Positions 1-18,257 of a stretch of DNA of 64,000 nt are shown in pieces. Positions within the stretch are counted from its first letter, which is position 1. Each line of letters starts with the position of its first letter. The notes beneath the pieces were generated by a model. It searched no databases. It was given only the letters and a program-made list of their open reading frames with translations, and was not told where the DNA came from. This DNA is from an uncultured Acidobacteriota bacterium (GTDB lineage: Bacteria > Acidobacteriota > Vicinamibacteria > Vicinamibacterales > JAKQTR01), in NCBI GenBank assembly GCA_963813325.1, contig CAWEYM010000004.1, forward strand, positions 386,463 to 450,462. The letters run 5' to 3'. The position numbers were made by a program, and so were the translations under genes.

Positions 1-681
1 AAGGCGCACGTGGACGGGTCAGGAGACAAGACCAAGATCCGGATCATCTCCGCGCTGCCGCCGAACGAGGCGAGCGAGATTTGCACGACTTGCCACGACC
101 GGAAGACCCACGCCCTGTGGTCGGGCAGCCAGCACGACACGCGCAACGTGGGCTGCACGACCTGCCACAGCATTCACGCGCCGAAGAGCGCCGACGCCAA
201 TCTCAAGGCGAAGAACGAGTTCGAGCTGTGCGGCACCTGCCATCGGGCGATTGTCAACAAGCAGAACCGCTTCAACCACATGCCGGTGCGCGACGCCAAG
301 ATGTCGTGCACCTCGTGCCACAACGTCCACGGCAGCTCGAACCAGAAGCTGTTGAAGGCCGGCACGACGGTGGACGAGAGCTGCACGAGCTGCCACACCG
401 AGAAGCGTGGCCCGTATCTCTGGGAGCACGCCCCGGTGGCTGACAGCTGCGTCACCTGCCACGATCCGCACGGGTCGAACAACGACCGGATGCTCGTGGC
501 CAAGCAGCCGTTCCTCTGCCAGCGCTGCCACGTCACGTCGCGCCATCCTCCAACGGTGTACGAGGGCTACCTGCTGAAGAACTCGACGAACGCCAACAAG
601 ATCTTCGGGCGTTCCTGCGTGGCGTGCCACCAGATGGTGCACGGCTCGAACTCCCCCAACGGCAAGGCCTTCCTGCGCTAA
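1..681 (+). CDS. Periplasmic decahaem-type c-cytochrome (MtrA/DmsE/MtoA family), 5' end cut by the window edge
   Basis: Frame 1 is open to base 1 (aag gcg cac gtg...), so the GTG at 10 is not the true start. There are 8 CXXCH haem motifs in the visible ~226 codons (CTTCH x2, CGTCH, CTSCH x2, CVTCH, CQRCH, CVACH). The tight haem spacing is typical of MtrA-like decahaems. The signal peptide and 2 more haems are expected upstream. An MtrB/PioB-like gene follows 15 nt later. Confidence 0.85.
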   Translation, partial: KAHVDGSGDKTKIRIISALPPNEASEICTTCHDRKTHALWSGSQHDTRNVGCTTCHSIHAPKSADANLKAKNEFELCGTCHRAIVNKQNRFNHMPVRDAKMSCTSCHNVHGSSNQKLLKAGTTVDESCTSCHTEKRGPYLWEHAPVADSCVTCHDPHGSNNDRMLVAKQPFLCQRCHVTSRHPPTVYEGYLLKNSTNANKIFGRSCVACHQMVHGSNSPNGKAFLR

Positions 682-696
682 CTGAGGAGGATCGCG

Positions 697-2970
697 ATGC
701 GCAACAGACTGATGAGTGTGACTGCGGCGCTTTTGCTCGCCTCCGCCGGTACGGTGATGGCGCAGCAGGAGCCGCCGTCGGGCGGCGCGACCGCGTCGTT
801 GACGGGGTCGGTGGACATCGGGTTCCGCGCCACGTCGACGACGGGCGACGAGGCCCGGTACGAGCGGTACCGCGACCTGCGGAACGGCGCGTATACGAAT
901 ATCGTGTTCGGCAAGGAGACCTCCAGCTACCTGTTCGACGTCGAGGCGCAGAACGTGGGCTACCGCGATCAGCGCTACGCGGGGCAGTACCGGAACAGCA
1001 AGTTCAACTTCTCGTTCCTGTGGGACTCGATCCCGCTGAACTACTCGTACATCTCGTCGACGCCGTGGGTGGAGGCGCAGAAGGGCGTGTGGACGCTCGA
1101 CACCGCCGCCCGGACGGCCGTCCAGAACAAGCAGCCGGGCGTCGTCGGCATCCCGGCCAACGCGGCGCAGGCGGGCCAGGCGTCGATCTACCGCGCCCTG
1201 GCGAAGCCCTTCGATCTCCAGCAGCGCCGCGACACGGCGGGGTTCAACCTGACCTACGAGGCGACGCCGGACATCGGCATCGACGTGGCGTTCAGCACGA
1301 CGCACAAGTCCGGCTACCAGCCGTTCGGCATGTCGTTCGCGTTCAACAACGCCAACGAGCTGCCGCTGCCGCTGGACAACCGGACCAACGACTTCTCGGT
1401 GGCCGTCGAGTGGGCGCGGCCGCAGGGGATGTTCCGCGCGTCGCTCGACCGCTCGATGTTCTCGAACCAGTACAACCAGATCGAGTGGGACAATCCGCTG
1501 CGGGTGACCGACTTCAACAACGGGCTGGCGCCGCCGCTCGGTCCGTACGACCCGAGCGGGTACAGCAACGGCAACGGTCCCGCCACCGGGCGGATCTCGT
1601 CGTTCCCCGACAGCACCATGACGGTCGTCAGCTTCATGGGGCTCTACAAGATGCCGCGGCGCACCACCGTGAACGGCACGGTGCAGGTGATCGACCAGAA
1701 CCAGAACGACACGCTGATTCCCTGGACGACCAACTCGGTGATCAACCAGCCGCTGGTGTGGGCGGCCTTCCCGGAGCTCGCACAGCTCGAGCGGACGACG
1801 GCGGAAGCCAAGGTCCGGGCGGTCAACGCGCTGATCAACTTCTCGTCGCGGCCGACAGGGATGCTCGGGTTCAACGCCAAGTACCGTCACAACACGCACG
1901 CCAACGTCTCGCGGCCGTTCAACGCGACGGAGTACGTGCGGTTCGACGCGGTGCCGGAGGAAACCGGCAGCGAGACCGAGGGGCACGACATCGTGCGCGA
2001 CACGCTGGACGCGACGGTGTCGCTCAATGTCATCCCGCAGGCGACCCTGCGGGTGGGCTACGGCCTGGACAACTTCAACCGCTCAGGCCGGGCCTACAAC
2101 GACATGCGGGACAACGCGTTCCGCGTGACGCTCGACTCGATGGGCCATGCCTTCTTCTCGGCGCGGGTCGGCTACGAGCTGGTGAAGCGGACCGGGTACG
2201 GGTTCTCCGAGATGGCCATCGAGGATGGCGGCGCCCAGCCGGGCCTGCGCTTCTACGATGAGGCCAACCGCGACCGGAACCGCCTCAACGCGCTCGTGAC
2301 GCTGACCCCGCTGGCGACGATCGACGTGACCGGGTCGGTGGCCTACGGCAAGGACACCTACGGCGGGCCGGGGCTCGAGTTCGGCCTGCTCGACAACAAG
2401 AACACCTCGTACAACATCGGCGTCAACTTCACGCCGATGGATACCGTGGTGCTCGGCGCGAACTACGGGCGCGACTCGTACAACGCGTTCCAGAAGTCGC
2501 GCAACGCGAACCCGCCGCCGGACCCGTCGTGGACCGATCCCAGCCGCGACTGGACGCTGACCAACGACGAGAAGGTCAACAACTTCGACCTCTACCTCGA
2601 CCTGATCCAGGTCATCAAGAAGGCGGACATCCGCTTCGCCTACGACTACAGCGATTCGGACAACTCGTTCCTGCACGGCGGGCCGCGCATCCCGGCGCTG
2701 GCCGCGATCGGCCAGTTCGAGGCGCTGCCCGACGTCACGAACAAGTGGCAGCGGCTCACCGTGGACGTGAAGTACATGGTGACGGCCAAGATCGGCGCGG
2801 CCCTGGGCGTCTGGTACGAGAAGCTCGATATCACCGATTACGCGACCATCGACCTGCCGGGACAGCCCGGCGTGCCGCGGGTCGACTATCTGGGCGAGAT
2901 CTCGACCGGCTACGGCAACCGGCCGTACAAGGGCACCACGGGGGTCTTCCGCCTGATCTACCTGTTCTAG
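697..2970 (+). CDS. MtrB/PioB/MtoB-family outer-membrane beta-barrel partner of the decahaem cytochrome
   Basis: 757 aa. GAGGAGG RBS at 684-690, 6 nt before the ATG. Sec signal peptide (MRNRLMSVTAALLLASAGTVMA/QQ). Asn/Tyr/Asp/Gly-rich alternating beta-strand composition. C-terminal ...FRLIYLF aromatic terminus typical of OM barrels. Size and position immediately after a decahaem cytochrome fit the family. Confidence 0.75.
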   Translation: MRNRLMSVTAALLLASAGTVMAQQEPPSGGATASLTGSVDIGFRATSTTGDEARYERYRDLRNGAYTNIVFGKETSSYLFDVEAQNVGYRDQRYAGQYRNSKFNFSFLWDSIPLNYSYISSTPWVEAQKGVWTLDTAARTAVQNKQPGVVGIPANAAQAGQASIYRALAKPFDLQQRRDTAGFNLTYEATPDIGIDVAFSTTHKSGYQPFGMSFAFNNANELPLPLDNRTNDFSVAVEWARPQGMFRASLDRSMFSNQYNQIEWDNPLRVTDFNNGLAPPLGPYDPSGYSNGNGPATGRISSFPDSTMTVVSFMGLYKMPRRTTVNGTVQVIDQNQNDTLIPWTTNSVINQPLVWAAFPELAQLERTTAEAKVRAVNALINFSSRPTGMLGFNAKYRHNTHANVSRPFNATEYVRFDAVPEETGSETEGHDIVRDTLDATVSLNVIPQATLRVGYGLDNFNRSGRAYNDMRDNAFRVTLDSMGHAFFSARVGYELVKRTGYGFSEMAIEDGGAQPGLRFYDEANRDRNRLNALVTLTPLATIDVTGSVAYGKDTYGGPGLEFGLLDNKNTSYNIGVNFTPMDTVVLGANYGRDSYNAFQKSRNANPPPDPSWTDPSRDWTLTNDEKVNNFDLYLDLIQVIKKADIRFAYDYSDSDNSFLHGGPRIPALAAIGQFEALPDVTNKWQRLTVDVKYMVTAKIGAALGVWYEKLDITDYATIDLPGQPGVPRVDYLGEISTGYGNRPYKGTTGVFRLIYLF

Positions 2971-3006
2971 GTCTCTAGGTCGACTCGTTCCTCCTGAGTG
3001 TCGTTG

Positions 3007-3045
3007 GACCCGGTCGCCCGCAGGGGCGGCCGGGTCGTTTTTTTT
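3007..3045 (+). terminator. Rho-independent terminator after the porin gene
   Basis: 13-bp GC-rich stem (GACCCGGTCGCCC / GGGCGGCCGGGTC, one G-T pair) with a 4-nt loop, followed by G and a run of 8 T (3038-3045). This is the only long T-run in the window. Confidence 0.8.
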
Positions 3046-3069
3046 GCGGCGATCTGGTAACATTGCTGC

Positions 3070-3414
3070 ATGTTGAGAATGAGTCTCATCTTGATCGGCA
3101 CGGCGTTCGTGGCTCTCACGGTGGCGGCGGCGCAGGCCCCCGACCCCAAACTCGTGGCCAAGGGGCAGGCCCTGGTCGTCGAACACAAGTGCGCGATGTG
3201 CCACACCGTCGCCGGCAAGGGCGGCAAGCTGTCCGCGTCCCTCGACGGCGTCTCCGCCCGACGCGACGCGGCCGGTCTGAAACGCGCCCTGGAAGACCCC
3301 CTGGCCGAGTTCCCCCAGGCCAAGATCAAGATGCCGAAGGTGCTCTGGAAGCCCGGCGACGTCGACGCGGTGGTCGCGTTCCTCCAGAGCCTCAAGGCCT
3401 CGCCCGCCAAGTAG
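3070..3414 (+). CDS. Monohaem class I c-type cytochrome, secreted
   Basis: 114 aa. Signal peptide MLRMSLILIGTAFVALTVAAAQA. Single CAMCH haem motif. Distal Met candidate in KIKMPKV. Small-cytochrome size. Confidence 0.8.
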   Translation: MLRMSLILIGTAFVALTVAAAQAPDPKLVAKGQALVVEHKCAMCHTVAGKGGKLSASLDGVSARRDAAGLKRALEDPLAEFPQAKIKMPKVLWKPGDVDAVVAFLQSLKASPAK

Positions 3415-3468
3415 AGTCGTCCCGCGCGGTGGCTGCTGGATTCCGGGGCCGCCGCGGAGGTGTCGTGC

Positions 3469-5256
3469 ATGTCGTGCCCGCAGTCGGTCGGCCATGAGCC
3501 GCCGCCGCAGCCGCTCCTGAAGGTGCGGGCGCGGCCCCTGCGCCTGGCCCTGGTCGGCAACCCCAACGTCGGCAAGAGCGTCCTGTTTGGCCGACTGACC
3601 GGCCAATACGCCATGGTGTCCAACTACCCGGGCACGACCGTCGCGGTGACCCGCGGCCGGGCACCCCTGGGGCCGGAGGTGTGCGATCTCATCGACACGC
3701 CCGGCGTCAATGCGCTCGAGGGCACGCTGAGCGAGGACGAAGCCGTCTCCCGCCGGATCCTCCTGGACGGTGAGGCCGACGTCGTGGTGCAGGTCGCCGA
3801 CGCGCGGAACCTGCGGCGCGGCCTGATGCTGACGTCGCAACTGGCGGCCTTCCAGAAGCCCATGATCCTCGTCCTGAACATGATCGACGAGGCGCGGGCG
3901 CACGGCATCTCGATCGACACCGCGGGTCTCGCGGCGCGCCTGGGCGTGCCGGTGGTCGAGACGGTCGCGACCGAGGGGCGGGGAATGGCCGATCTCAAGG
4001 ATGCCATCCAGCACGCCGCCTGCCCGTCTCTGGCCATCGACCCGTCCCGGGATCACGCGCGGCTGGCCCATGACCTCTCGACGCGGTTCCGTACGCACGA
4101 GGCGCGGTCTGTCGCCCGGGTGCAGGAGCGCATCGGCCGGCTCATCCGCGAGCCGATTACGGGCCTGCCCATCCTGGCCGTCGTGCTCTACCTGATGTAC
4201 CTGATCGTCGGCGTGTTCGGGGCGCAGACGCTGGTCGGCATCATCGAAGGCGGGTTCAACCGCGGGATCAACCCGGTCGCCATTGCGGCCTTCGACCGCT
4301 TCGTGCCGGTGCCCCTCGTCCGGGATTTCTTCGTCGGGCCCTACGGTCTGATCACCATGGGCCTGACCTACGCGATTGCCATCGTCCTGCCGGTCGTGGC
4401 GACGTTCTTCTTCGTCTTCGGGTTTCTCGAAGACTCGGGCTACATCCCGCGGCTCGCGATCTTCAGCGATCGGATCTTCCGGGCCATGGGTCTCAACGGC
4501 AAGGCCGTGCTGCCCATGGTGCTGGGGCTCGGCTGCGACACGATGGCCACGATGACGACGCGGATCCTGGGCACGAAGAAGGAGCGGCTCATCGCGATCC
4601 TGCTGCTGGCGCTCGGCGTGCCGTGCTCGGCCCAGCTCGCGACCATTCTCGGCATCCTCGGCGGGATCTCCTACGCGGCCCTGCTGACCCTGTTTGGCGT
4701 GGTGCTCGGGCAGATGTTCCTGGTGGGGTTCCTCGCGGCGCGCATCCTCCCAGGCGAGCGGTCGGACTTCATCCTCGAGATGCCGCCCGTGCGCCTGCCC
4801 CAGTTCCGCAACCTGTTGCGGAAGACGGTGCTGCGCATCCGGTGGTACCTTGGTGAGGCCGTGCCGCTCTTCCTGATCGGCACGGTCCTGCTGTTCGCGC
4901 TGGATCGGGTCGGCGCCCTGGTGTGGCTCGCGGAGGCAGGCAAGCCCGTGGTGTCCGGGCTCCTGGGCCTGCCGCCCCGGACGGCCGAGGTGTTCGTCAT
5001 GGGCTTCCTGCGCCGGGACTACGGTGCGGCAGGCCTGTTTGCGCTCGCCCACGCGGGGCAGTTGAGCGGCGTGCAGGCCGTCGTCGCCCTCACGGTCATG
5101 ACCCTGTTCGTCCCGTGCGTCGCCAACTTCCTGGTCATGGTGCGGGAGCAGGGACTGCGCGTCGGCCTCGCGATCCTGGCGTTCGTCACCGTCACGGCGC
5201 TGGCCACGGGGACGGCGCTGAATGCCGCGCTGGGGGCGTTGCATGTCACGTTTTGA
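3469..5256 (+). CDS. feoB: Ferrous iron transporter FeoB
   Basis: N-terminal G-domain motifs: G1 GNPNVGKS, DTPG, and G4 NMID. A polytopic membrane domain with gate-like motifs follows. ATG 3469 has a GGAGG 8 nt upstream. The GTG at 3460 given by the track sits too close to the RBS. Confidence 0.9.
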   Translation: MSCPQSVGHEPPPQPLLKVRARPLRLALVGNPNVGKSVLFGRLTGQYAMVSNYPGTTVAVTRGRAPLGPEVCDLIDTPGVNALEGTLSEDEAVSRRILLDGEADVVVQVADARNLRRGLMLTSQLAAFQKPMILVLNMIDEARAHGISIDTAGLAARLGVPVVETVATEGRGMADLKDAIQHAACPSLAIDPSRDHARLAHDLSTRFRTHEARSVARVQERIGRLIREPITGLPILAVVLYLMYLIVGVFGAQTLVGIIEGGFNRGINPVAIAAFDRFVPVPLVRDFFVGPYGLITMGLTYAIAIVLPVVATFFFVFGFLEDSGYIPRLAIFSDRIFRAMGLNGKAVLPMVLGLGCDTMATMTTRILGTKKERLIAILLLALGVPCSAQLATILGILGGISYAALLTLFGVVLGQMFLVGFLAARILPGERSDFILEMPPVRLPQFRNLLRKTVLRIRWYLGEAVPLFLIGTVLLFALDRVGALVWLAEAGKPVVSGLLGLPPRTAEVFVMGFLRRDYGAAGLFALAHAGQLSGVQAVVALTVMTLFVPCVANFLVMVREQGLRVGLAILAFVTVTALATGTALNAALGALHVTF

Positions 5257-5482
5257 CACCACCTGCCGGCTGTCCGCACTGGCCGCCGGTGCCCGCGGGC
5301 GGGTCGTGCGGGTCGCGCGGGACAACGCCCCGCGGGCCGAACGCCTGGCGGCGCTGGGGGTGACCCCGGGCGCGTCGGTGACCGTGCTCCAGACGTTCCC
5401 CGGCGTGGTCTTCCTCTGCGATCAGACCGAGCTGGCCGTCGAGCCCGCGGTCGCCTCGTCGATCATGATCGACATCAGCTGA
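5243..5482 (+). CDS. feoA: FeoA-family protein (SH3-like Fe2+ transport accessory)
   Basis: LSALAAGARGRVVRV...LAALGVTPGASVTVLQTFPGVVFLCDQTELAVEPAVASSIMI matches the FeoA domain pattern. The start is either ATG 5243 or ATG 5222. Both overlap the feoB 3' end (stop at 5254-5256). Confidence 0.8.
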   Translation: MSRFDTTCRLSALAAGARGRVVRVARDNAPRAERLAALGVTPGASVTVLQTFPGVVFLCDQTELAVEPAVASSIMIDIS

Positions 5483-5743
5483 GCCCGGCGCTCTTCGGGG
5501 CTCGCTCGAGTTGAGCACGCGCCGGGCATGTCGCGCGCGGGCTGCAGCCCGCGTGCCCGGAGCGAACACCCATCCCACGTGAGCCCCTGGCCGACTCCCT
5601 GGCCGTCCACGGGCGCCAGCGCACCGGCGCGGACCCACCCACCCCGGCTTCCGGCACGCCAATTGCCAGCAAAGATAGTTGAACCTCCAATCTTGACGGA
5701 ATTCCGGAGGGAGAAGGCTCCCGACCAGAGGAGTAACAGGGTC

Positions 5744-6310
5744 ATGCGGTTACTCGACGTGCTCATTGATGAGCATCGCGGGTTCAGTGAGATGCTGGAC
5801 GTCCTCGACGCGATCGCGGCGCGCCTCGGCGGGCGGGGAGAAGTCCCTGACGGCATGGCGGCCGATGTCCTGGATTTCTTCGAGAATTTCGCGGATCGCC
5901 ACCACGGCAAGGAAGAGGACGTGCTCTTCCCGATGCTGGCGCAGCACGGCCTGGGGCCGGACCAGACGGTCGTGGCTGCACTTCTGGCGCAGCACGAGGC
6001 TGGCCGGGCGTACTCGAAAAAGATGCGGGCGGACCTGGGGCGCCTGCGCGCCGGGAACCGGGCCGCCCGGGCCGACCTGGCCATGCACGCCAGGGGCTAT
6101 ACGGAGCTGATCCGGGAGCACATCCGCATCGAGGACGATTATTTTTACAAGCTGGCCGACTCCCTCCTGTCGAGTTCGGAGCAGGTGGCCGTCGTCCAGG
6201 TGTTCCGCGGCCCCCACGACCTCTTGCCGTCCGAGAGCCGGCAGCGATATCTTGAGATGATTCCCCGCTACCGGGGCGTCGTGGCACAGTGGGAGCGGCC
6301 GAGCCTATGA
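5744..6310 (+). CDS. Hemerythrin (HHE cation-binding) domain protein
   Basis: MRLLDVLIDEHRGF..., DRHHGKEEDVLFPML and EHIRIEDDYF are His/Glu motifs of the hemerythrin-like four-helix bundle. ATG 5744 is preceded by GAGGAG. The upstream part of the 5528 ORF is Pro/Arg-rich non-protein-like sequence. Confidence 0.8.
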   Translation: MRLLDVLIDEHRGFSEMLDVLDAIAARLGGRGEVPDGMAADVLDFFENFADRHHGKEEDVLFPMLAQHGLGPDQTVVAALLAQHEAGRAYSKKMRADLGRLRAGNRAARADLAMHARGYTELIREHIRIEDDYFYKLADSLLSSSEQVAVVQVFRGPHDLLPSESRQRYLEMIPRYRGVVAQWERPSL

Positions 6311-6756
6311 GTGAAGATCGCGTCCAGCAGGTCAGCCTGTCCCTGATTCGGGACTACGAGTTCAAGGTGTCTTTCGATACCATCCCCGCGGCCGACGCGC
6401 TGCAGGTCGACGAGCCGCCGCCGCTCGGGGGCGGCAATGGCCCGAATGCCTCGGCGCTGCTGTCGGCGGCGGTGGGAAACTGCCTGGCTGCCAGCCTGGC
6501 GTTCTGCCTGAAGAAGTCGCGGGTCGATCTCGAGGCGTTGGACGTGCGCGTGAGTACGCAGATCGTGCGCAACGAGAACGGGCGATTCCGCATCGGCGGC
6601 ATCAAGGTTCACCTGCGCCCGGGCCTCAGCGCCGTGGACCCGGCGCGCTTCGCGCGTTGCCGGGACCTGTTCGAGGACTTCTGCATCGTGACGGCCAGCG
6701 TCAAGCAGGGCATTCCCGTCGAGGTGAGCGTGGAGGAGCCGGCGGCGAGGACCTGA
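6307..6756 (+). CDS. OsmC/Ohr-family peroxiredoxin-like protein
   Basis: PPPLGGGNGPNASALLSAAVGNCLAASLAFCLKK... carries the two conserved Cys contexts of OsmC. ATG 6307 overlaps the hemerythrin stop (ATGA). Confidence 0.85.
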   Translation: MSEDRVQQVSLSLIRDYEFKVSFDTIPAADALQVDEPPPLGGGNGPNASALLSAAVGNCLAASLAFCLKKSRVDLEALDVRVSTQIVRNENGRFRIGGIKVHLRPGLSAVDPARFARCRDLFEDFCIVTASVKQGIPVEVSVEEPAART

Positions 6757-6991
6757 TAGCGGGCGTCTGTCGATCTGCGGGGCGGCCGCCTCCAGGGCGA
6801 ACCGTCCCGCAGACCTACTCAGTCTGAGAAGGGGAGTCGTCGGGCTCCCGGGTCGGCGGCTTCTGACGTCGGGACCCGACGTCGCAGGCGCCGCGCATTC
6901 AGGTCTGGACCCCCAGGCGCGGCAACACCCAGACGTTCAGCACCAGCCAGACGACGAACAACACCACGAAGCCAACGATGTCCATGGTGAC

Positions 6992-7411
6992 TCAGGCGAT
7001 CCCGGCGCTGGCCTCGAGGCTGCGCAGGGCGCGGCGCAGACGCTCGTCGGCCTCGCGGGCCACGTCCTTCATGGCCGGGTCGCCGCCCACCATGCCGAGC
7101 GCCGTCACCGGGGCCATGGCGGAGACCACGCTCCTGCCCGGCTCGGTCTCGTAGACCACCACGTTGCAGGGCAGCAGCAGGCCGATCTCCAGCTCGTTCT
7201 CGAACGCTCTGTACGCGAGCGGCGGATTGCAGGCGCCGAGAATGACGTACTTGCGGAAGTCCTTGTTGAGCTTCTCCTTCATCGTCTGCTTGACGTCGAT
7301 CGTCGAGAGGATGCCGAAGCCTTCCTTCTTCAATTCGTCCGTCGCCCGCTCGACGGCCGTCTCGTAGGGCAGCGCGAGCTCGACACCCATCCCGTACCTG
7401 GTTTCCTTCAT
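6992..7411 (-). CDS. DUF302 domain protein
   Basis: 139 aa. LPYETAVERATDELKKEGFGILSTIDVKQTMKEKL...YVILGACNPPLAY is the characteristic DUF302 signature. GGAGG RBS upstream. Confidence 0.85.
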   Translation of the reverse strand: MKETRYGMGVELALPYETAVERATDELKKEGFGILSTIDVKQTMKEKLNKDFRKYVILGACNPPLAYRAFENELEIGLLLPCNVVVYETEPGRSVVSAMAPVTALGMVGGDPAMKDVAREADERLRRALRSLEASAGIA

Positions 7412-7645
7412 GGAGCCTCCAATTGGAATCTCGGTTGCCTGACGCCGCCGCAGCCCCCGATGAGGAACCCGCAGCCACGCAGCCCTAGTTTACCCTTGCC
7501 TGTCAAATCCCCGCCATGGTCGTGCCGGCGAGAACAGCCGGGCCGCCGGCACCCACGGGCCCGGCGCGCGCATCGGACACTGGTAGGGATTCAGGCCGAC
7601 GGCGGTGGTTACAGGCCGAATCGTGGCAGTGCTTCAGCGAGGCCG

Positions 7646-8293
7646 ATGGCATACAATCGACGTGTGACCAAACGCGCAGATCAGAATCCTTCCACTAGCG
7701 GGACGGCGGCGCCTGTGCGCGAGCCGGATTACGCAACGCTTCTCCGGGCGGCGCAGGCGGGGAACCGGCAGGCGATGGAACGGTTGCTCATGCGGGCTCA
7801 GGAGGTGGCGTACCGGTTCAGTCTGCTCGTGTGCGGCCATGCGGACGACGCGGAGGACGCCATGCAGGAGGCACTCCTCAAGACGTACCGCTACGCGACG
7901 CAAATCAAGGAACCCGAGGCGTTCCGCACGTGGCTCTACCGCACCGTGAAGAACGCGTGCCTAATCAGCCGCCGCCGTCGCGTGCACGAGCCCGAGCGGG
8001 TCCTGTCGCTCGACGAGGTGGTGGTGGGCGACGATGGCGGGTCACAGACGATGGACGTGGTGGATCCGGGCAAGCGTCCGGACCAGGTGATGGCCAATAC
8101 GAGGTTGCGCCGGTCGCTGCAGCGGGCGCTGGGTGTGCTCACCCCGGAGTCCCGGTTGATCGTGTTTCTGCGCGAGGTCGAGGGGCTGTCCACGCGTGAA
8201 GTCGCCAACGTCGTCGGCATCAGCGAGGCGAACGTCAAGACGCGCCTGCACCGTGCGCGGCTCGTGCTGCGCCAGCACCTGGAGACGGTATGA
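7646..8293 (+). CDS. ECF-type RNA polymerase sigma factor (SigR-like)
   Basis: Region 2 (DAEDAMQEALLKTYRY...FRTWLYRTVKNACL) and region 4 HTH (LTPESRLIVFLREVEGLSTREVANVVGISEANVKTRLHRAR). ATG 7646 was chosen. The in-frame upstream extension to 7460 is low-complexity. Confidence 0.85.
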   Translation: MAYNRRVTKRADQNPSTSGTAAPVREPDYATLLRAAQAGNRQAMERLLMRAQEVAYRFSLLVCGHADDAEDAMQEALLKTYRYATQIKEPEAFRTWLYRTVKNACLISRRRRVHEPERVLSLDEVVVGDDGGSQTMDVVDPGKRPDQVMANTRLRRSLQRALGVLTPESRLIVFLREVEGLSTREVANVVGISEANVKTRLHRARLVLRQHLETV

Positions 8294-8562
8294 AAGCCCC
8301 GGCCCATGATCGCTGCCGCGCGCTGCTCGGCCAGCTGTCCCGGTTCGTCGATGGCGACCTGGATGGGGTGGAGCGCCGCACGATGGTGATGCACCTGAAG
8401 CAGTGTCCCTGTTGCGAGGAGCTCGCCGAGAGCCTGCAGCGGACCGTCGAGGCGTGCCACCAGGCGGGTCGGAGCCGGCTGCCGGCCGACGTGCGCCGCC
8501 GTGCGCGGGCGCGCATCGCCGCCATGCTGGCCGCCGAGACCGACCCGCACGGCCGCTCGTAG
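8290..8562 (+). CDS. Small cytoplasmic zinc-binding anti-sigma factor (ZAS, RsrA-like)
   Basis: 90 aa, no TM segment. H35-x3-C39-x2-C42 (HLKQCPCC) plus C9. ATG overlaps the sigma gene stop (ATGA). Confidence 0.8.
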   Translation: MKAPAHDRCRALLGQLSRFVDGDLDGVERRTMVMHLKQCPCCEELAESLQRTVEACHQAGRSRLPADVRRRARARIAAMLAAETDPHGRS

Positions 8563-8711
8563 CGCGCGCCGCTGAACCTCTCCGGTTTTCCCCCGTTGGA
8601 CCCGCCCGGCCGTCGAGTGCTCTCGGCGCCCTCCGCCTGACCGGGGCGGCCGCGCGGGGCACGGGCCGCCGGGACCGGCTCCCGGCGCCCTCACCCCGCG
8701 TCGACGCATCG

Positions 8712-9707
8712 TCAGGCTATCTGGTAGGTCTGCAGCACCCGCATGTAATTGGCGCGCTCGAAGGCGGCGGCGTTGGGGCTCCGCTCGAGGCTCATGCTGG
8801 CGTGCGCCTGCGCGAGGGATTCGTACTCGTGCTCCTCGAGCCACTGGCGCATGCCGTCCACGATCGTCTTGATGTGCTCGGGACCGTTCCTGAGGAGGCT
8901 GGACACGACCTGGACGCCGCTGGCGCCAGCCATCACGGCCTTCAGGGCGTCGCCCGACGTGTGGACGCCTCCCGACACGGCGAGCGAAGCCTTGACGCGT
9001 CCCGACAGGATCGCGAGCCACCGAAGCCTCAGCAGCAGGTCCGCCGAGGTCGAGAGGGCGAGGCTCGGCACCACCGAGAGATCCTGCAGATCGATGTCCG
9101 GCTGGTAGAAGCGGTTGAAGGCCACGATGCCATCGACGCCGAGTGCATCCAGCTGCGCGGCGAGATGCGACACCGACGAGTAGAACGGCGAGAGCTTGAC
9201 CGCGACGGGAATCGAGACGGATTCCTTGACCGTGCGCGCGATGTCGACCACGCGGCGCTCGACGGCGGATCCGGCTTCGCGCTGGTCGGCGGCCACGTGG
9301 TAGATGTTCAGCTCGAGGCCGTTGGCGCCCGCCTGCTCGAGCAGCCGCGCGTACTCCAGCCACCCCTCCGCGGTCGTGCCGTTCAGCGAGGCGATGACCG
9401 GGACCGTGACGGCCTGCTTGACGAGCCGCAACTGCTCCAGGTACTGGTGCGGGCCGGTGCGGAACTCGTCGGCCTGGGGGAAATACGACAGCGCCTCCGC
9501 GCTGCCGTTGTCGAGCAGTTCCATGTGGTAGACCATGCCCAGCTGCTCGCGGGTGATCTGCTCCTCGAACAGGGAGTGCATGACGATCGCGGCGGCCCCG
9601 GCGTCTTCGAGCCGCTTGACGAGATCGAGGTGGTCGACCATGGGCGAGGCGCCCGGCATCACGGGGTGGGGGAGCTTCAGTCCAAGGTAGGTCGTCGAAA
9701 GATCCAT
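8712..9707 (-). CDS. Dihydroorotate dehydrogenase-like TIM-barrel flavoprotein (not a true PyrD)
   Basis: 331 aa with DHOD class-1 fold motifs (GLKLPHPVM, VPVIASLNG, IPVAVKLSP, SGGVHTSGDALK). The active-site N-L-S-C-P-N position reads N-I-Y-H-V-A. It lies directly downstream of nifJ. Confidence 0.85.
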   Translation of the reverse strand: MDLSTTYLGLKLPHPVMPGASPMVDHLDLVKRLEDAGAAAIVMHSLFEEQITREQLGMVYHMELLDNGSAEALSYFPQADEFRTGPHQYLEQLRLVKQAVTVPVIASLNGTTAEGWLEYARLLEQAGANGLELNIYHVAADQREAGSAVERRVVDIARTVKESVSIPVAVKLSPFYSSVSHLAAQLDALGVDGIVAFNRFYQPDIDLQDLSVVPSLALSTSADLLLRLRWLAILSGRVKASLAVSGGVHTSGDALKAVMAGASGVQVVSSLLRNGPEHIKTIVDGMRQWLEEHEYESLAQAHASMSLERSPNAAAFERANYMRVLQTYQIA

Positions 9708-9800
9708 GATTCGCTCTCCGTGTCCCGGGACAATCGTCCCGGGGTCCAGTCTCCAGGAAGGCCCGCGGGGCCACCGGCCCCGCGGGCGAATCGGCGGCTC

Positions 9801-12800
9801 CTACTTCGCGGCCGGCGGGAAGGCCAGCTTCGACAGCTGTTCGTAGACGCTGAACCGTGTCGTGGTTTCGCGCTGCGCACGCTCGGCGAGCATCTTGAAC
9901 CGCTGCGGGTCGAGCTGTTCGACGACGCGGAACCGCGGCTCGTTGTTCGTGAACTTGCTCAGGTCGATCTTGGGCGCGGGCGAGTCCATCACGAGCGGGC
10001 TCTCGCCGTGGTTGATGCGGCGCGGGTCGAAGCGGAACAATGGCCAGTACCCGGAGTCCACGGCCAGCTTCTGCTGGTCGAGGCCGAAGGCGAGGTCGTA
10101 GCCGTGGGCGATGCAGTGGCTGTAGGCGATGATGATTGACGGGCCCGGGAACGACTCGGCCTCGAGGAACGCCTTCACGGTCTGCACGTCCTTGGCGCCG
10201 AAGGCCACATGGGCGACGTAGGTGTTGCCGTAGGCCATGGCCATCATGGCGAGGTCCTTCTTGAAGTTGGACTTGCCGGCCATCGCGAATTTCGCCGACG
10301 CGCCGAGCGGCGTCGCCTTCGACTGCTGCCCCCCGGTGTTGGAGTAGACCTCGGTGTCGAGGACGAGGATGTTGACGTCGCGGCCCATCGCCATGACGTG
10401 GTCGAGGCCGCCGTACCCGATGTCGTACGCCCAGCCGTCGCCTCCGACGATCCAGACGCTCTTGCGCACCAGGTAGTCGGCGACGCGCGCCAGCCAGCCC
10501 GCTTCGGGGGTCGCCAGGGCCGCCAGCTTCTGCCGCAACGCGACGACGCGCTCCCGCTGTTCGCCGATGCCCTGCTCGCTTGACTGATCGGCCTCGAGGA
10601 GGCCGTCGACCAGCGTGCCGCCGAGGTCCGAGGCCAGCGTGCGCACCAGCTCCCGGGCGTGCTCGGCCTGCTTGTCGATCGCCAGCCGGTAGCCGAACCC
10701 GAACTCGGCGTTGTCCTCGAAGAGGGAGTTGGACCAGGCCGGCCCGCGACCGTCGCGGTTCACGGCATACGGCGTGGTCGGCAGGTTGCCGCCGTAGATG
10801 GACGAGCAGCCGGTGGCGTTGGCGATGAGCGCCCGGTCGCCGAACAGCTGCGTGACGAGCTTGACGTACGGGGTCTCGCCGCAGCCGGCGCAGGCGCCCG
10901 AGTACTCGAAGAGCGGCTGGAAGAACTGCGCGCCCTTGACGTCCGCCTTCACCCTGCTGCGGTCCACCTCGGGCAGGTCCAGGAAGAACGCGTAATTGGC
11001 CCGCTCGGCCTCGCGCAGCGGCCGCTGCGGATGCATGTCGAGCGACTTGTGCTTCGGATTGGCCTTGTCCTTCGCCGGGCAGACCACCGAGCACAGCGTG
11101 CAGCCGGTGCAGTCCTCCGCCGCGACCTGGATCGTGTACTTGAGGCCCTTGAACTCGCCGCCCTTGAAGTCCATCGACTTGAACGTGGGCGGGGCACCTT
11201 CCAGGAGCGCCGGCTCGTACACCTTCGCGCGGATCGCGGCGTGCGGACAGACCATCGCGCACTTGTTGCACTGGATGCAGATGGCAGCGTCCCACACCGG
11301 GATGTCCTGCGCGATGTTCCGCTTCTCCCACTGCGCCGTCGCGGAGGGCCACGTCCCGTCGACCGGGAAGGCGCTGACCGGCAGCAGGTCGCCCTTGTTG
11401 GCCAGCATCACCGCGGTCACGCGCTTGACGAAGTCGGGGGCCGCGTCCGCGACGATGGGCGGCATCAGGCGCGTGGCAGTCACCCGCTCCGGCACGGCGA
11501 CCTGGTGCAGGTTGGCCAGCGTCTGGTCGACCGCGGCGAAGTTCTTTCTGACCACCTCGGGGCCGCGCTTGCCGTACGTCTTCTCGATGGCCTTCTTGAT
11601 CTGCGTGATCGCCTCGTCACGGGGCAGCACGCCCGAAATCGCGAAGAAGCACGTCTGCATGATCGTGTTGATGCGGTTGCCCATGCCCGTGTCGCGCGCG
11701 ACGCTGTAGGCGTCGATGACGTAGAACACGAGCTTTCGATCGATGATGACCTGCTGCGCCTCGCGCGGCAGTTCGTCCCAGACCTGGTCGCCCGGGAACG
11801 GGCTGTTGAGCAGGAACACGGCTCCCGGCGCCGCGTAGTCCAGGACGTCGTACTTGTCCATGAACTCGTACTGGTGGCACGCGACGAAGTTCGCCCGCCT
11901 GACCAGGTACGACGAGCGGATCTGCCGCGGGCCGAACCGCAGGTGCGAGATGGTGATCGCGCCCGCCTTCTTCGAGTCGTACACGAAGTAGCCCTGGGCG
12001 AAGTTGTCCGTCTCCTCGCCGATGATCTTGATGGAGTTCTTGTTCGCCCCGACCGTGCCGTCCGAGCCGAGCCCGAAGAACACGCACCGCCTGACGTCGT
12101 CCGGCTCGATGTCGAGATCCAGGTCGTGCGCCAGCGACAGGTGCGTCACGTCGTCCACGATGCCGACGGTGAAGTGATTCCTCGGCCGCGGCAGCGCGAG
12201 GTTGTCGTACACCCCCTTCACCATCGCGGGCGTGAACTCCTTCGACGAGAGCCCGTAGCGACCGCCGACGATGACCGGGTCCTGAGCCATCGGCGCCGTG
12301 CCCGCCGACCGGGCCTCGCGCAGCGCCGTGACCACGTCGAGGTACAGCGGCTCGCCCAGCGCCCCGGGTTCCTTGGTGCGATCCAGGACGCCGATGGACG
12401 TGACGGTGGCCGGCAGGACGCCGACGAAATGCGCGATCGAGAACGGCCGGTACAGGCGGACCTTGACCAGCCCGACCTTCTCGCCCCGGGCGACCATCCA
12501 CTCGACCGCCTCGTGCGCGACCTCGGCGCCCGAGCCCATCATCACGATGACGCGCTCGGCCTGCGGGTGGCCGACATAATCGAAGAGGTGATACGGGCGG
12601 GCCGCCAGCCGGCCGAACTGCTCCATGACGTCCTGCACAACCGCCGGGCACGCGTCGTAGTAACCGTTGCAGGCCTCCCGGGCCTGGAAGAACGCGTCCG
12701 GGTTCTGCGCCGTGCCGCGGAGCACCGGCCGATCAGGGGAGAGCGCCCGCCGCCGATGATCGGCGATCAGGGTGTCGGGCAGCATCGCCCGCAGGTCCTC

Positions 12801-13364
12801 GTCCACCAGCTGCTCGATCTTGGCCACCTCGTGCGAGGTCCGGAAGCCGTCGAAGAAGTGGAGAAACGGCACGCGGCTCCGCAGCGTCGCAGCCTGCCCG
12901 ATCAGCGCGAAGTCGTGGGCCTCCTGGGGCGATCCCGACGCGAGCATCGCGAACCCCGTCTGGCGGCACGCCATCACGTCGGAGTGATCGCCGAAGATCG
13001 ACAGCGCGTGCGACGCGACCGTGCGGGCCGAGACGTGCATGCAGCAGGACGTCAACTCGCCCGCGATCTTGAACATGTTCGGGATCATCAGCAGGAGGCC
13101 CTGCGACGCCGTGAAGGTCGTCGTCAGCGCGCCCGCCTGGAGCGAGCCGTGCACCGCGCCGGATGCGCCGCCCTCGGATTGCATCTCCACGACCAGCGGG
13201 ACGGTGCCCCAGACGTTCTTGTGGCCCTTGGCGGACCACTCATCCGCCCATTCGCCCATGTTGGACGACGGGGTGATCGGGTAGATGGCGATGACCTCGT
13301 TCGTGCGGTGCGCGACGGAGGCAACGGCTTCGTTGCCATCGATGGTGATGTACGGCCGTGTCAT
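9801..13364 (-). CDS. nifJ: Pyruvate:ferredoxin (flavodoxin) oxidoreductase, single-polypeptide type
   Basis: About 1,187 aa. Begins MTRPYITIDGNEAVASVAHRTNEVIAIYPITPSS. Ferredoxin-like CIQCNKCAMVCPHAAIR and CTGCTLCSVVCP. ThDP domain GGDGWAYDIGYGGLDH. ATG 13364 is preferred over 13409. Confidence 0.95.
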   Translation of the reverse strand: MTRPYITIDGNEAVASVAHRTNEVIAIYPITPSSNMGEWADEWSAKGHKNVWGTVPLVVEMQSEGGASGAVHGSLQAGALTTTFTASQGLLLMIPNMFKIAGELTSCCMHVSARTVASHALSIFGDHSDVMACRQTGFAMLASGSPQEAHDFALIGQAATLRSRVPFLHFFDGFRTSHEVAKIEQLVDEDLRAMLPDTLIADHRRRALSPDRPVLRGTAQNPDAFFQAREACNGYYDACPAVVQDVMEQFGRLAARPYHLFDYVGHPQAERVIVMMGSGAEVAHEAVEWMVARGEKVGLVKVRLYRPFSIAHFVGVLPATVTSIGVLDRTKEPGALGEPLYLDVVTALREARSAGTAPMAQDPVIVGGRYGLSSKEFTPAMVKGVYDNLALPRPRNHFTVGIVDDVTHLSLAHDLDLDIEPDDVRRCVFFGLGSDGTVGANKNSIKIIGEETDNFAQGYFVYDSKKAGAITISHLRFGPRQIRSSYLVRRANFVACHQYEFMDKYDVLDYAAPGAVFLLNSPFPGDQVWDELPREAQQVIIDRKLVFYVIDAYSVARDTGMGNRINTIMQTCFFAISGVLPRDEAITQIKKAIEKTYGKRGPEVVRKNFAAVDQTLANLHQVAVPERVTATRLMPPIVADAAPDFVKRVTAVMLANKGDLLPVSAFPVDGTWPSATAQWEKRNIAQDIPVWDAAICIQCNKCAMVCPHAAIRAKVYEPALLEGAPPTFKSMDFKGGEFKGLKYTIQVAAEDCTGCTLCSVVCPAKDKANPKHKSLDMHPQRPLREAERANYAFFLDLPEVDRSRVKADVKGAQFFQPLFEYSGACAGCGETPYVKLVTQLFGDRALIANATGCSSIYGGNLPTTPYAVNRDGRGPAWSNSLFEDNAEFGFGYRLAIDKQAEHARELVRTLASDLGGTLVDGLLEADQSSEQGIGEQRERVVALRQKLAALATPEAGWLARVADYLVRKSVWIVGGDGWAYDIGYGGLDHVMAMGRDVNILVLDTEVYSNTGGQQSKATPLGASAKFAMAGKSNFKKDLAMMAMAYGNTYVAHVAFGAKDVQTVKAFLEAESFPGPSIIIAYSHCIAHGYDLAFGLDQQKLAVDSGYWPLFRFDPRRINHGESPLVMDSPAPKIDLSKFTNNEPRFRVVEQLDPQRFKMLAERAQRETTTRFSVYEQLSKLAFPPAAK

Positions 13365-13465
13365 ATCGTTGGAATCTCCGAAAGGTGACCGGTGCGGTCC
13401 ATGGAACACGGGGACGCGAGCAGGACGCGCGGCCCCCAGAATCTCACAGCAACCTCTGTGCCCTT

Positions 13466-13494
13466 TGTAACATCTTTATCTATAAAGAGTTACA
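13466..13494. promoter_or_regulatory. AT-rich near-perfect palindrome (candidate operator/promoter) upstream of nifJ
   Basis: TGTAACATCTTTATCTATAAAGAGTTACA. The outer arms TGTAAC/GTTACA and the inner arms TCTTTAT/ATAAAGA are reverse complements, with one bulged A and a 2-nt centre. It is an AT island in GC-rich DNA, about 100 nt upstream of the nifJ ATG. It contains TATAAA/TATAGA -10-like hexamers on both strands. Confidence 0.4.
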
Positions 13495-13757
13495 GGATAG
13501 GTCCGGCCGGGGGGCGAGGGGGTGCCGGAATGTCGGCATGGCATGAACTCATGCCCGCCGGTGGCGGAGCGCGAACCGCGTCGAGACGAACGCCGGAGAT
13601 GTCCGCAGGGGACTGGCGGGGGACTGCCCGACGGGTCGAGGGCGACCTCGCGGGTGCCTTGCGGCTCACCGACAACCTGAGAACGTACCATCACCGGGGC
13701 GATTTGTGAAGGGGCATGCCGCCGAGGATTCGGAAACGGGCGCCGAGCGTCTGTAGA

Positions 13758-14527
13758 ATGGTTGATATGGGGACCGTGACGCCTTCAATCGTCGCCTCAC
13801 GTCGAGCCCGGACGGGCCGCTGGACAGCCGGGCCGCGCGTCTGGCTCGGCGGCGTCATCGTCGCGGTGGCCATGGGCGCGTGCGGCGCGCAGGAGCCGCG
13901 GGCGCCGGACCCCGCCCGGCCGGCGGGGGCCGAGGCCGCACCGGCAGGCGCCGTCGCCCCGGCGCCGGCAGCGGCGCGGGTCGTGGTGCTCGGCGACAGC
14001 CTCACCGCCGGTCTCGGCCTGACCCTGGACGAGGCGTACCCGGCGCTCCTGCAGGCCCGCCTGCGCGCGGGCGGCTATCCCGTGACCGTGGTGAACGCTG
14101 GGGTATCGGGGGATACCTCGGCCGGCGGGCTGCGGCGGCTGGACTGGGCGCTCGACGGCGGGGCCGCCGTGCTGGTCGTGGCGCTGGGCGGGAATGACGC
14201 CCTGCGCGGCCTGCCGACCGAGGAGCTGAAGCAGAACCTGGCCGCCATCATCGAGCGCGCGCAGCAGCGTGGCGTGGCGGTGCTGCTGGCCGGGATGGAG
14301 GCGCCGCCCAATCTCGGCCAGGCCTACACGTCGGCCTTTCGCAAGGTGTACCGCGATCTGGCGGCCACGTACCGAGTAGCCTTCCTGCCGTTCCTCCTCC
14401 AGGATGTCGCCGGCGTTCAGGCGCTGAACCAGCCGGATGGGATCCACCCGAACGCGGACGGCGCCCGCCGGGTCGCGGATCATCTTCTGCCCTTGATCGA
14501 AACCATGCTCCGGCAGCGAGTCACGAC

Positions 14528-14531
<4 letters not shown>
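13758..14531 (+). CDS. SGNH/GDSL arylesterase-thioesterase (TesA-like), lipoprotein-type signal
   Basis: Block I VVVLGDSLTAG, block III GGNDALRG, block V DGIHPNADG. N-terminal hydrophobic segment ending AMGAC (lipobox-like). The start is uncertain (13758 or 13767). Confidence 0.85.
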
Positions 14532-15256
<725 letters not shown>

Positions 15257-15258
15257 GC

Positions 15259-17796: not shown

Positions 17797-17872
17797 CTCG
17801 GGGAGGGACGCCGGCGTCACGCCCGCATCGCGCTGATGCGCCGGACACCCGGGCGGGGACGGGTCTTCCGCA

Positions 17873-17881
17873 TGATATAAT
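17873..17881 (+). promoter_or_regulatory. Extended -10 promoter candidate (TGaTATAAT) for the dksA-like gene
   Basis: A perfect TATAAT at 17876-17881 is preceded by TG at the -15/-14 positions. It lies 41 nt upstream of ATG 17922 with a GGGAGAAGG RBS in between. No recognisable -35. Confidence 0.4.
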
Positions 17882-17921
17882 CGGCTGTTGACGCACCAAC
17901 GGTGCTGGACGGGAGAAGGGC

Positions 17922-18257
17922 ATGCCTGATACGAGCTACCGCGAGTCGCTGCTCCACAAGCGGGCGGAGATCCTGGCAGAGGGCGGGATCCGGCCCCTGC
18001 AGGCCTCGATGGAGAACAATTCCCGGCAGGGGGATCTCGCCGACCAGGCCAGTGGCAACAACGAGGTCCACATCCAGCTCAAGCTGAAGCAGACCGACGC
18101 GAAGATCCTTCAGGCCATCGAAGAAGCGCTCCAGCGCATCGAGAAGGGTACCTACGGCGTCTGCCGCGACTGCGGCGAGCCCATCTCGCCGGCACGCCTG
18201 AGCGCCATCCCGTGGACCCGGGTCTGCATCACCTGCAAGGAAAAGCAGAACTCGTGA
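17922..18257 (+). CDS. dksA: DksA/TraR-family RNA polymerase-binding zinc-finger protein
   Basis: 111 aa. C-x2-C-x17-C-x2-C zinc finger (CRDC...CITC). Coiled-coil tip motif D38-L-A-D41-Q-A43 (DxxDxA). Confidence 0.8.
   Translation: MPDTSYRESLLHKRAEILAEGGIRPLQASMENNSRQGDLADQASGNNEVHIQLKLKQTDAKILQAIEEALQRIEKGTYGVCRDCGEPISPARLSAIPWTRVCITCKEKQNS

Follow-up and report, generated by a model that had tools for sequence, protein, structure and literature searches.

Most work on porin-cytochrome conduits concerns their part in respiration in a small number of model Proteobacteria. MtrA and MtrB carry electrons across the outer membrane for Fe(III) reduction, MtoA and MtoB together with MtoD, and likewise PioA and PioB, run the reverse flow for Fe(II) oxidation, and FeoB is an importer of Fe2+. 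We know of no Feo linkage described for Mto or for Pio. In Shewanella, the mtr cluster adjoins feoA-feoB in conserved synteny (PMC4222724; PMC8805035), and homologues of PioA and PioB have earlier been reported in Acidobacteria (PMC10654088). The locus described here lies at the 5′ end of a 64,000-nucleotide stretch of contig CAWEYM010000004.1 (positions 386,463 to 450,462; hereafter the window) from an uncultured Acidobacteriota bacterium of the class Vicinamibacteria, where mtrA and mtrB precede a monohaem cytochrome c gene, feoB and feoA, all on the (+) strand. Its gene families are already known and are named by NCBI in close homologues, as is the mtr-feo adjacency of Shewanella. New are the extent and depth of mtrAB-feoBA linkage in the Vicinamibacteria, a conserved feo promoter and palindrome, and a cytochrome c gene, predicted to be leaderless, grafted between that promoter and feoB. 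Literature searches found no description of an mtrAB-feoBA module in Acidobacteria.

The window opens inside mtrA, and genes upstream of mtrA were therefore read in relatives only. Bases 1–681 (+) hold the 3′ two-thirds of a gene for an MtrA-type periplasmic decahaem cytochrome c: frame 1 is open from the window edge for 226 residues to a stop codon at 679–681, with 8 of the 10 expected CXXCH motifs visible and about 100 N-terminal residues lying beyond the edge. The fragment passes the TIGR03508 model (DmsE/MtrA decahaem; 214.1 bits, cut-off 192.2) although truncated, and Shewanella baltica MtrA (6R2Q_A) aligns to it over 208 residues (E = 7.5e-52). Orthologues in relatives carry 10 CXXCH in 300–340 residues, exemplified by that of locus L001 (83% identity, 328 residues, 10 CXXCH, 254 bits against TIGR03508). 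A protein search with the fragment returned no match above 84% identity. Reading the direction of electron flow from MtrA similarity was considered and rejected; published MtoA and the fragment resemble Shewanella MtrA to about the same degree, and their similarity therefore does not discriminate between the two directions.

The next gene, mtrB (697–2970, +), starts with ATG 697, 15 nucleotides past the mtrA stop and behind a Shine-Dalgarno sequence, GAGGAG, at 684–689. It encodes a 757-residue mtrB/pioB-type outer-membrane barrel protein with a signal-like N-terminus (MRNRLMSVTAALLLASAGTVMAQQ). The protein matches Pfam PF11854 (MtrB_PioB) over residues 73–755 with 245.9 bits (gathering score 23), scores 181 bits against the stricter NCBIfam model TIGR03509, below its cut-off of 240, and has close homologues that carry the NCBI name MtrB/PioB family. 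By sequence, MtrB of 6R2Q is a weak match (E = 1e-8). The AlphaFold2 model, built from 82 sequences, has a mean predicted local distance difference test score (pLDDT) of 86.7, a predicted template modelling score (pTM) of 0.79 and 26 long strands; a Foldseek search of it against the PDB places Shewanella MtrB (6R2Q_B) first (E = 3.1e-36; template modelling (TM) score 0.75 by query and 0.87 by target), and the remaining matches are 22-strand TonB-dependent receptors with TM scores below 0.5. By profile hidden Markov models (HMMs), PDB sequence matches and the AlphaFold2 model with Foldseek, mtrA-mtrB is an MtrAB-type porin-cytochrome conduit. A preliminary description made from the letters alone had called it such, and its particulars agree with these results: a truncated multihaem cytochrome with 8 CXXCH and, 15 nucleotides further on, a 757-residue signal-peptide barrel protein. 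It had made its proposal depend on that protein belonging to the MtrB/PioB family and having more than 20 strands, which the results above bear out. The other features on its list, namely a strong terminator after the barrel gene, a secreted CAMCH cytochrome behind it, feoB 54 nucleotides later (exact when the ATG start given below is used) and an overlapping feoA, were likewise all found in place.

The importer gene feoB (3469–5256, +) is assigned from ATG 3469 (MSCPQ...), the start shared with homologues, whereas the open reading frame (ORF) list had used GTG 3460. The protein scores 385.5 bits against the equivalog model TIGR00437 (cut-off 315.65), and its Pfam domains (PF02421, two copies of PF07670, and PF07664) give an N-terminal G domain followed by Gate and FeoB_C membrane domains, as in Fe(II) transporters. 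Within the window's clade, the N-terminus (window 3469–3550) forms a conserved extension of about 25 residues before G1, with the start MSC(P/A/H)Q and an invariant Cys3; we take this extension to be absent from E. coli FeoB. The gene feoA (5222–5482, +; alternative start ATG 5243; SH3-like FeoA domain PF04023, 48.7 bits against a threshold of 23) overlaps the feoB stop codon at 5254–5256. Every called gene has a family match well above chance in profile HMM searches. Third codon positions are 0.81–0.96 G+C (GC3) against 0.45–0.59 at second positions (GC2) in every called gene, as expected for real genes in a genome of 66–70% G+C.

Conservation of this neighbourhood was followed from both sides: from the conduit, in 80 loci around MtrB relatives (42–72% identity) in species-representative genomes with 10-kb flanks (genome loci), and from the importer, in the 80 closest FeoB relatives (66–76% identity, plus one of 49%) on JGI metagenome contigs (metagenome loci). 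Individual loci are cited by number. All relatives belong to one class, Vicinamibacteria, and counts of loci are not independent; homologues with a taxonomic label are all from Vicinamibacterales/Vicinamibacteria (Acidobacteriota) metagenome-assembled genomes. About 77 of the 80 genome loci have mtrA as the gene just before mtrB. Among 66 mtrAB loci with enough downstream sequence, 11 carry feoB: in 10, feoB and then feoA follow 150–400 nucleotides downstream of mtrB, and in the eleventh, L014, they follow the second of two mtrA-mtrB pairs in tandem (8974–18188). In the genome loci, the gene found most often directly after mtrB is feoB, and the feoB-bearing loci fall at at least five separate positions in the neighbour-joining tree of MtrB. 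Seen from the importer, the linkage is tighter. Of the metagenome contigs, 49 are informative, having the FeoB N-terminus and at least 600 nucleotides of upstream sequence, and in 42 of them (86%) the gene next to feoB on its upstream side is an mtrB homologue, usually preceded by mtrA. This makes mtrA-mtrB-feoB-feoA a conserved module, and adjacency is kept even where MtrB is only 30–34% identical to that of the window and FeoB 66–76%. The neighbourhood is thus conserved well beyond its own genome, a point on which the preliminary description had made its proposal depend. Since gene order is feoA-feoB in Shewanella and the phylum differs, the mtr-feo pairing probably arose more than once. The conserved pairing suggests that the conduit serves these bacteria in generating or processing the iron that they import.

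Two adjacent, separately transcribed units are nevertheless predicted. An intrinsic terminator follows mtrB (3007–3046, +), comprising a 13-bp stem at 3007–3036 with 11 G-C pairs and a loop of 4, and then GTTTTTTTTG with its run of eight T; it is the sole strong terminator-like site in the first 9 kb, and hairpins also follow mtrB in L001, L003, L004, L059 and L067. Just past it lies a predicted extended −10 element of the feo operon, TGGTAACAT (TGnTAnnAT; 3055–3063, +), kept in 21 sequences; in the window and 20 related loci the box stands in fixed register, 9–10 nucleotides upstream of a palindrome. A generic sigma-70 promoter scan of bases 1–9000 found no match, and the feo promoter is proposed here from its conservation across species. 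The mtrA upstream region of relatives (L001 8689–9000; also L002, L003, L084, L085, L087, L091 and L148) instead has a sigma-54-type promoter, GGCAT-N5-TTGCA (GG-N10-GC spacing), about 75 nucleotides before the start codon, with two further conserved palindromes ahead of it (CTGAA-N6-TTCAG and ATCCAAT-N2-ATTGGAT), and genes for NtrC-type response regulators are frequent near mtrAB (28/80 loci). The preliminary description had cautioned that the terminator leaves any link resting on neighbourhood, and rightly so, given the conserved promoter and operator of feoBA itself and the sigma-54-type promoter of mtrAB in relatives. To our knowledge, almost no promoters have been characterized in Acidobacteriota.

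The palindrome, TTGAGAATGAGTCTCAT (3073–3089, +), overlaps cytochrome codons 2–7 and has an invariant core TGAGA-N5-TCTCA at 3074–3088. The window has a single copy, and so has each of the 20 related loci, placed without exception either shortly before feoB or at the beginning of the cytochrome c gene; where that gene is lacking, the palindrome stands 42–178 (mostly about 70) nucleotides ahead of the feoB ATG. A second match at 41462, with two mismatches, lies on the start codon of an unrelated gene and is at chance level (11/100 shuffles), and was set aside. Also rejected was a riboswitch or structured RNA in the palindrome and feoB leader: no Rfam family matches at E ≤ 1, and RNAalifold finds only the invariant 5-bp palindrome stem, with zero covariation. 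A protein-binding DNA operator at the predicted transcription start is accordingly the better reading, probably one bound by a metal-responsive repressor that putatively senses iron. A short second hairpin occurs 3–20 nucleotides past the palindrome in some feoB leaders (ATGGC-N3-5-GCCAT in L081, L082, L084, L089 and L090); its arms vary to ACGGCG...CGCCGT in L002 and GGGGCG...CGCCCC in L087, and the consensus fold missed it. Fur-repressed feo operons, such as E. coli feoABC, offer the obvious comparison. As in those operons, a palindromic, operator-like site coincides with the promoter or the start of transcription, and the arms of its consensus, TGAGACTGAATCTCA, agree with 10/14 specified positions of the Fur 7-1-7 box, which we take to be TGATAATnATTATCA; this makes Fur a candidate lead. 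Unlike in them, the core is TGAGA-N5-TCTCA, the extended −10 has no recognizable −35, a leaderless cytochrome c is the predicted first cistron and feoC is missing. No Fur gene is present in the window.

In a second class of feoB upstream region, found in L006 (3538–3763), L008, L011 (10336–10562), L019 and L067 (12376–12589), the extended −10 and TGAGA-N5-TCTCA are replaced by a sigma-54-type GG-N10-GC promoter (in L067, for example, GGCACCCTCTTTGC) together with one or two GGGAAnTTCCC palindromes. The mtrB-feoB spacer of L001 (12300–12400) holds long single-base stretches of G and of C, a string of N and a second copy of the mtrB 3′ end, probably an assembly artefact.

Between promoter and feoB, the window encodes a secreted class I monohaem cytochrome c of 114 residues (3070–3414, +; PF00034, 43.1 bits against a threshold of 21.3), with a signal-like N-terminus, read by eye, and CAMCH at residues 41–45. 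It has just two histidines, His39 and the proximal His45, and a single candidate distal ligand, Met88 in KIKMPKV; the distal Met is conserved across the family alignment (KxMP/KPxMK). A relation to MtoD, which the preliminary description had mentioned as the monohaem partner of MtoA and MtoB, is rejected: there is no match to the MtoD structure 4XXL in the PDB at E ≤ 1, and the ligands are His/Met rather than bis-His. MtoD itself has a bis-His haem with a potential of +155 mV (PMC4412085). By position, the cytochrome gene is the predicted first cistron of the feo operon rather than a part of mtrAB, as only 20–54 nucleotides, free of terminators, separate it from feoB in the window and in the three metagenome loci that share the arrangement (L086, L145 and L150; 60–68% identity among the four). 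In all four the ATG lies exactly 7 nucleotides past the −10 hexamer and the palindrome makes up codons 2–6, a geometry that predicts a leaderless mRNA, from which the cytochrome is probably translated. As a fixed component of the mtrB-feoB spacer it was rejected, since none of the 11 feoB-bearing genome loci (0/11) has it there. Its presence in L086, L145 and L150, and more distantly in L107, makes it a sub-lineage insertion and not a feature of the window only. Clustering finds members of the same cytochrome family close to mtrAB in 17 loci, and tblastn in about 30, sometimes as tandem copies; they follow mtrB directly in L029 and L060, and a copy in L022 is 68% identical to that of the window. 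This pattern suggests that the window cytochrome was originally an Mtr-associated one that the feo operon has taken in.

Relatives also supply candidate partners for the conduit in the inner membrane. L001, L003, L004 and L059 encode, upstream of mtrA, an 11-haem cytochrome with a C-terminal helix and an FdnI-like cytochrome b, a pair that reads as CbcL split into two genes. In about 25 loci, these four among them (454 residues), the gene directly before mtrA encodes a protein whose N-terminus has three transmembrane helices and which carries one CX3CH and five CX2CH. The L001 copy (7325–8689) has hydrophobic segments at about 14–41, 43–73 and 97–122, CGQVCH at 131 and five CX2CH, and the protein also matches PF03264 and NrfH. 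By architecture, this protein, seen in relatives and not in the window, is assigned the layout of ImcH, which has three N-terminal transmembrane helices, an atypical CX3CH after the third, 5–9 CX2CH and a NapC/NirT-like segment (PMC6295460). ImcH has so far been reported from Fe(III) reducers only, whereas CbcL/MtoC-type proteins are found in oxidizers and reducers alike, and a 2018 survey recorded no mtrAB or mtoAB adjoining imcH (PMC6295460). MtrC/OmcA-type large lipoprotein cytochromes are absent from the gene calls of the 80 genome loci and from the window downstream of mtrB, so the conduit is two-component, as in MtoAB and PioAB. Two further arrangements were seen among the genome loci. 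L060 (10001–15686) has, on one strand, mtrA-mtrB followed by genes for a monohaem cytochrome c, a Rieske protein, a cytochrome b of the b/b6 type and a 9-haem cytochrome, a gene order that links a predicted bc-type complex to the conduit. L019 (2837–7032) has, judged by eye, genes for an NiFe hydrogenase small subunit with a Tat signal, a large subunit (PVTRIEGH) and a maturation protease; these stand upstream of mtrAB, with the multihaem cytochrome gene on one side and the ImcH-like gene on the other.

Compared with the closest described systems, the locus combines traits of several. With Shewanella MtrCAB and feoAB it shares an MtrA homologue, a 26-strand barrel of MtrB fold and an mtr cluster that adjoins the Feo importer as a separate transcription unit; it differs in lacking MtrC/OmcA and the N-terminal CXXC of the barrel, in a barrel only 16% identical over the structural alignment, in the order feoB-feoA with a cytochrome c gene inserted into the feo operon, and in phylum. 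Sideroxydans lithotrophicus MtoA-MtoB-CymA(MtoC)-MtoD resembles it in having a decahaem cytochrome and a barrel with no surface cytochrome and, nearby, a membrane cytochrome related to NapC/NirT and a small class I cytochrome c with one haem. The window cytochrome is, however, His/Met with no detectable sequence relation to MtoD (4XXL, bis-His) and is predicted to be transcribed with feoBA rather than with the conduit, and the membrane cytochrome of relatives is ImcH-like (three transmembrane helices, CX3CH) rather than CymA-like. Rhodopseudomonas palustris PioABC likewise has an MtrA/MtrB-family pair without MtrC; its periplasmic partner, PioC, is a high-potential iron-sulfur protein and not a cytochrome c, and PioA has a long N-terminal extension, whereas orthologues of the window MtrA have 300–340 residues. 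Geobacter sulfurreducens ImcH and CbcL correspond to the ImcH-like protein and the split CbcL of relatives, which unlike in Geobacter are encoded directly upstream of mtrAB.

The reading that we tentatively prefer, at somewhat less than even confidence, is that outward electron transfer through the conduit reduces extracellular Fe(III) and that Feo imports the resulting Fe(II). The preliminary description had listed both this possibility and its reverse, and direction is here argued from gene context. Quinol-derived electrons would reach MtrA, in close relatives via the ImcH-like and split CbcL-like inner-membrane cytochromes encoded upstream. They would leave through MtrAB, a periplasmic decahaem cytochrome presumably threaded into the 26-strand barrel as in Shewanella, and would reduce Fe(III) outside the cell in chelates, in minerals or bound to humic matter. 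The Fe(II) formed would diffuse into the periplasm for import by FeoAB. In the sub-lineage of the window, the cytochrome c made together with FeoAB would add a further electron carrier to the periplasm; with the feo operon on, it might feed MtrA or keep periplasmic iron reduced. Outward flow is favoured because a gene for an ImcH-like quinol oxidase adjoins mtrA in relatives and because Fe(III)-respiring Shewanella has the same mtr-feo pairing. The predicted co-transcription of a redox protein and an Fe(II) importer, under a repressor-type operator, also fits reductive acquisition better than Fe(II) oxidation.

Several observations weigh against this preference. The conduit lacks MtrC, a trait typical of the Fe(II)-oxidizing Mto and Pio systems. 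The monohaem cytochromes near mtrAB are class I His/Met, as in Mto and Pio oxidizers, and such cytochromes usually have high potentials. Rieske and cytochrome b genes, also Mto/Pio-typical, adjoin mtrAB in L060 and lie close by in L011 and L067. The ImcH- and CbcL-like genes are seen in relatives only, the window starting inside mtrA. feoB is missing from 55 of the 66 mtrAB loci; at least two genomes hold two mtrAB loci each (L012/L022 and L019/L024, each pair from one metagenome-assembled genome), which limits how many of these loci could adjoin feoB. Shared regulation of mtrAB and feoBA is not evident, because their promoters differ (extended −10 against sigma-54-type). Finally, the barrel protein has no Cys in its 757 residues and hence no N-terminal CXXC. 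In Shewanella oneidensis MtrB, C42 of this motif is required for Fe(III) reduction, as Wee et al. (2014) are cited in PMC12175506. The missing motif has limited weight, because it is defined only within Gammaproteobacteria.

A stronger form of the preferred reading holds that MtrAB beside feoBA in Vicinamibacteria is primarily an iron-acquisition device and not a respiratory one, an outer-membrane ferric reductase that would solubilize Fe(III) for Feo. In the sub-lineage of the window, the putatively iron-regulated, leaderless cytochrome c would act as a dedicated switch sending respiratory electrons into the conduit when iron is scarce. We regard this as rather unlikely. It shares that standing with the foremost alternative, also rather unlikely, in which the conduit is a Fe(II)-oxidizing one of Mto/Pio type: electrons taken from extracellular Fe(II) would pass inwards through MtrAB, be received by monohaem cytochromes c and end at an oxidase or a bc-type complex, and feoBA would stand beside it because both systems serve in one Fe(II)-rich, low-oxygen niche. 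The two-component layout, the barrel without CXXC, the recurrence of the class I cytochrome family and the Rieske/cytochrome b genes of L060, L011 and L067 all suit inward flow, as do the occurrence of CbcL/MtoC-type proteins in oxidizers too (PMC6295460) and, after feoA, genes for a hemerythrin (a possible O2 or iron sensor) and an OsmC-family protein. What tells against it is that many relatives have an ImcH-like gene directly upstream of mtrA and that ImcH is reported from Fe(III) reducers only; the hydrogenase inside the L019 cluster also suits electron export. Moreover, a cell that oxidizes external Fe(II) works against its own uptake of that ion, and a repressor-type feo operator would let the cytochrome be produced at iron scarcity, when there is little Fe(II) to oxidize; no carbon-fixation or oxidase genes are present in the window.

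Supply logistics offer a further explanation, one that we consider distinctly doubtful: feoBA, joined in many relatives by an AhbD/NirJ-like enzyme, would be kept by mtrAB to meet demand for iron and haem, and the conduit would not be the source of Fe(II) for Feo. About 30 metagenome loci (for example, L095, L101 and L104–L106), along with L011 (12587–13750), L019 (14521–15819) and L067 (14539–15780), have an AhbD/NirJ-like radical SAM/SPASM gene directly after feoA, which points to a pairing of iron import with predicted haem synthesis beside the cytochrome cluster. The clusters themselves encode 10-, 11- and 5-haem cytochromes, and in the window a further haem protein is predicted to be co-transcribed with feoBA. 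However, the AhbD-like protein scores 442 bits against TIGR04545 (haem b synthase), under the curated cut-off of 500, the clade of the window has hemerythrin and OsmC genes in place of the radical SAM gene, the cytochrome maturation (ccm) genes lie outside the module, and the explanation leaves open why feo adjoins an outer-membrane conduit rather than any other cytochrome cluster. Equally improbable is the absence of any functional coupling, with adjacency being synteny inherited in one class and the Shewanella case a coincidence, which would accord with the terminator and separate promoters between the units, with the 55 of 66 mtrAB loci without feoB and with counts that come from a single class and are not independent, but fails to account for adjacency that persists with MtrB down to 30% identity and changed flanking genes, for an inter-unit regulatory region that was replaced (sigma-70 extended −10 against the sigma-54 class) while the genes were not separated, for feoB following the second tandem mtrAB pair in L014, and for an independent parallel in Gammaproteobacteria.

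Across deep divergence, then, the conduit is tied to the only Fe(II) importer of the locus, in very common, mostly uncultured Acidobacteria of soil and groundwater. Functional coupling would make extracellular electron transfer an everyday component of how these bacteria obtain iron, and metagenomic matches to mtrAB or mtoAB, now scored as iron respiration or oxidation, would need another reading. Were the iron-acquisition reading true, porin-cytochrome reductive iron uptake would be a widespread strategy of abundant soil and aquifer bacteria. The conserved promoter and palindrome and the grafted cytochrome c gene are concrete handles for studying its regulation.

Among the metagenome loci, the gene after feoA is either a hemerythrin gene, in the group of the window, or the AhbD/NirJ-like radical SAM gene. 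In the window, feoA is followed by a gene for a 188-residue hemerythrin HHE-domain protein (5744–6310, +; PF01814, 66.5 bits), found at this place also in L001–L004 and about 15 metagenome loci of the same clade, and by one for an OsmC-family protein (6307–6756, +; PF02566, 49.6 bits; conserved in L003 and L004), whose ATG overlaps the hemerythrin stop codon as ATGA (6307–6310). The pair is kept in the clade (L001–L004 and L081–L092), and a DUF302 gene on the opposite strand (6992–7411) is likewise conserved. An extracytoplasmic function (ECF) sigma factor and a zf-HC2 anti-sigma factor are encoded at 7460–8562. Further on, at 8712–13409 (−), the window encodes a 1202-residue pyruvate:ferredoxin oxidoreductase and a dihydroorotate-dehydrogenase-like protein, syntenic in L002 and partly in L060, a region that hints at anaerobic or microaerobic capacity.

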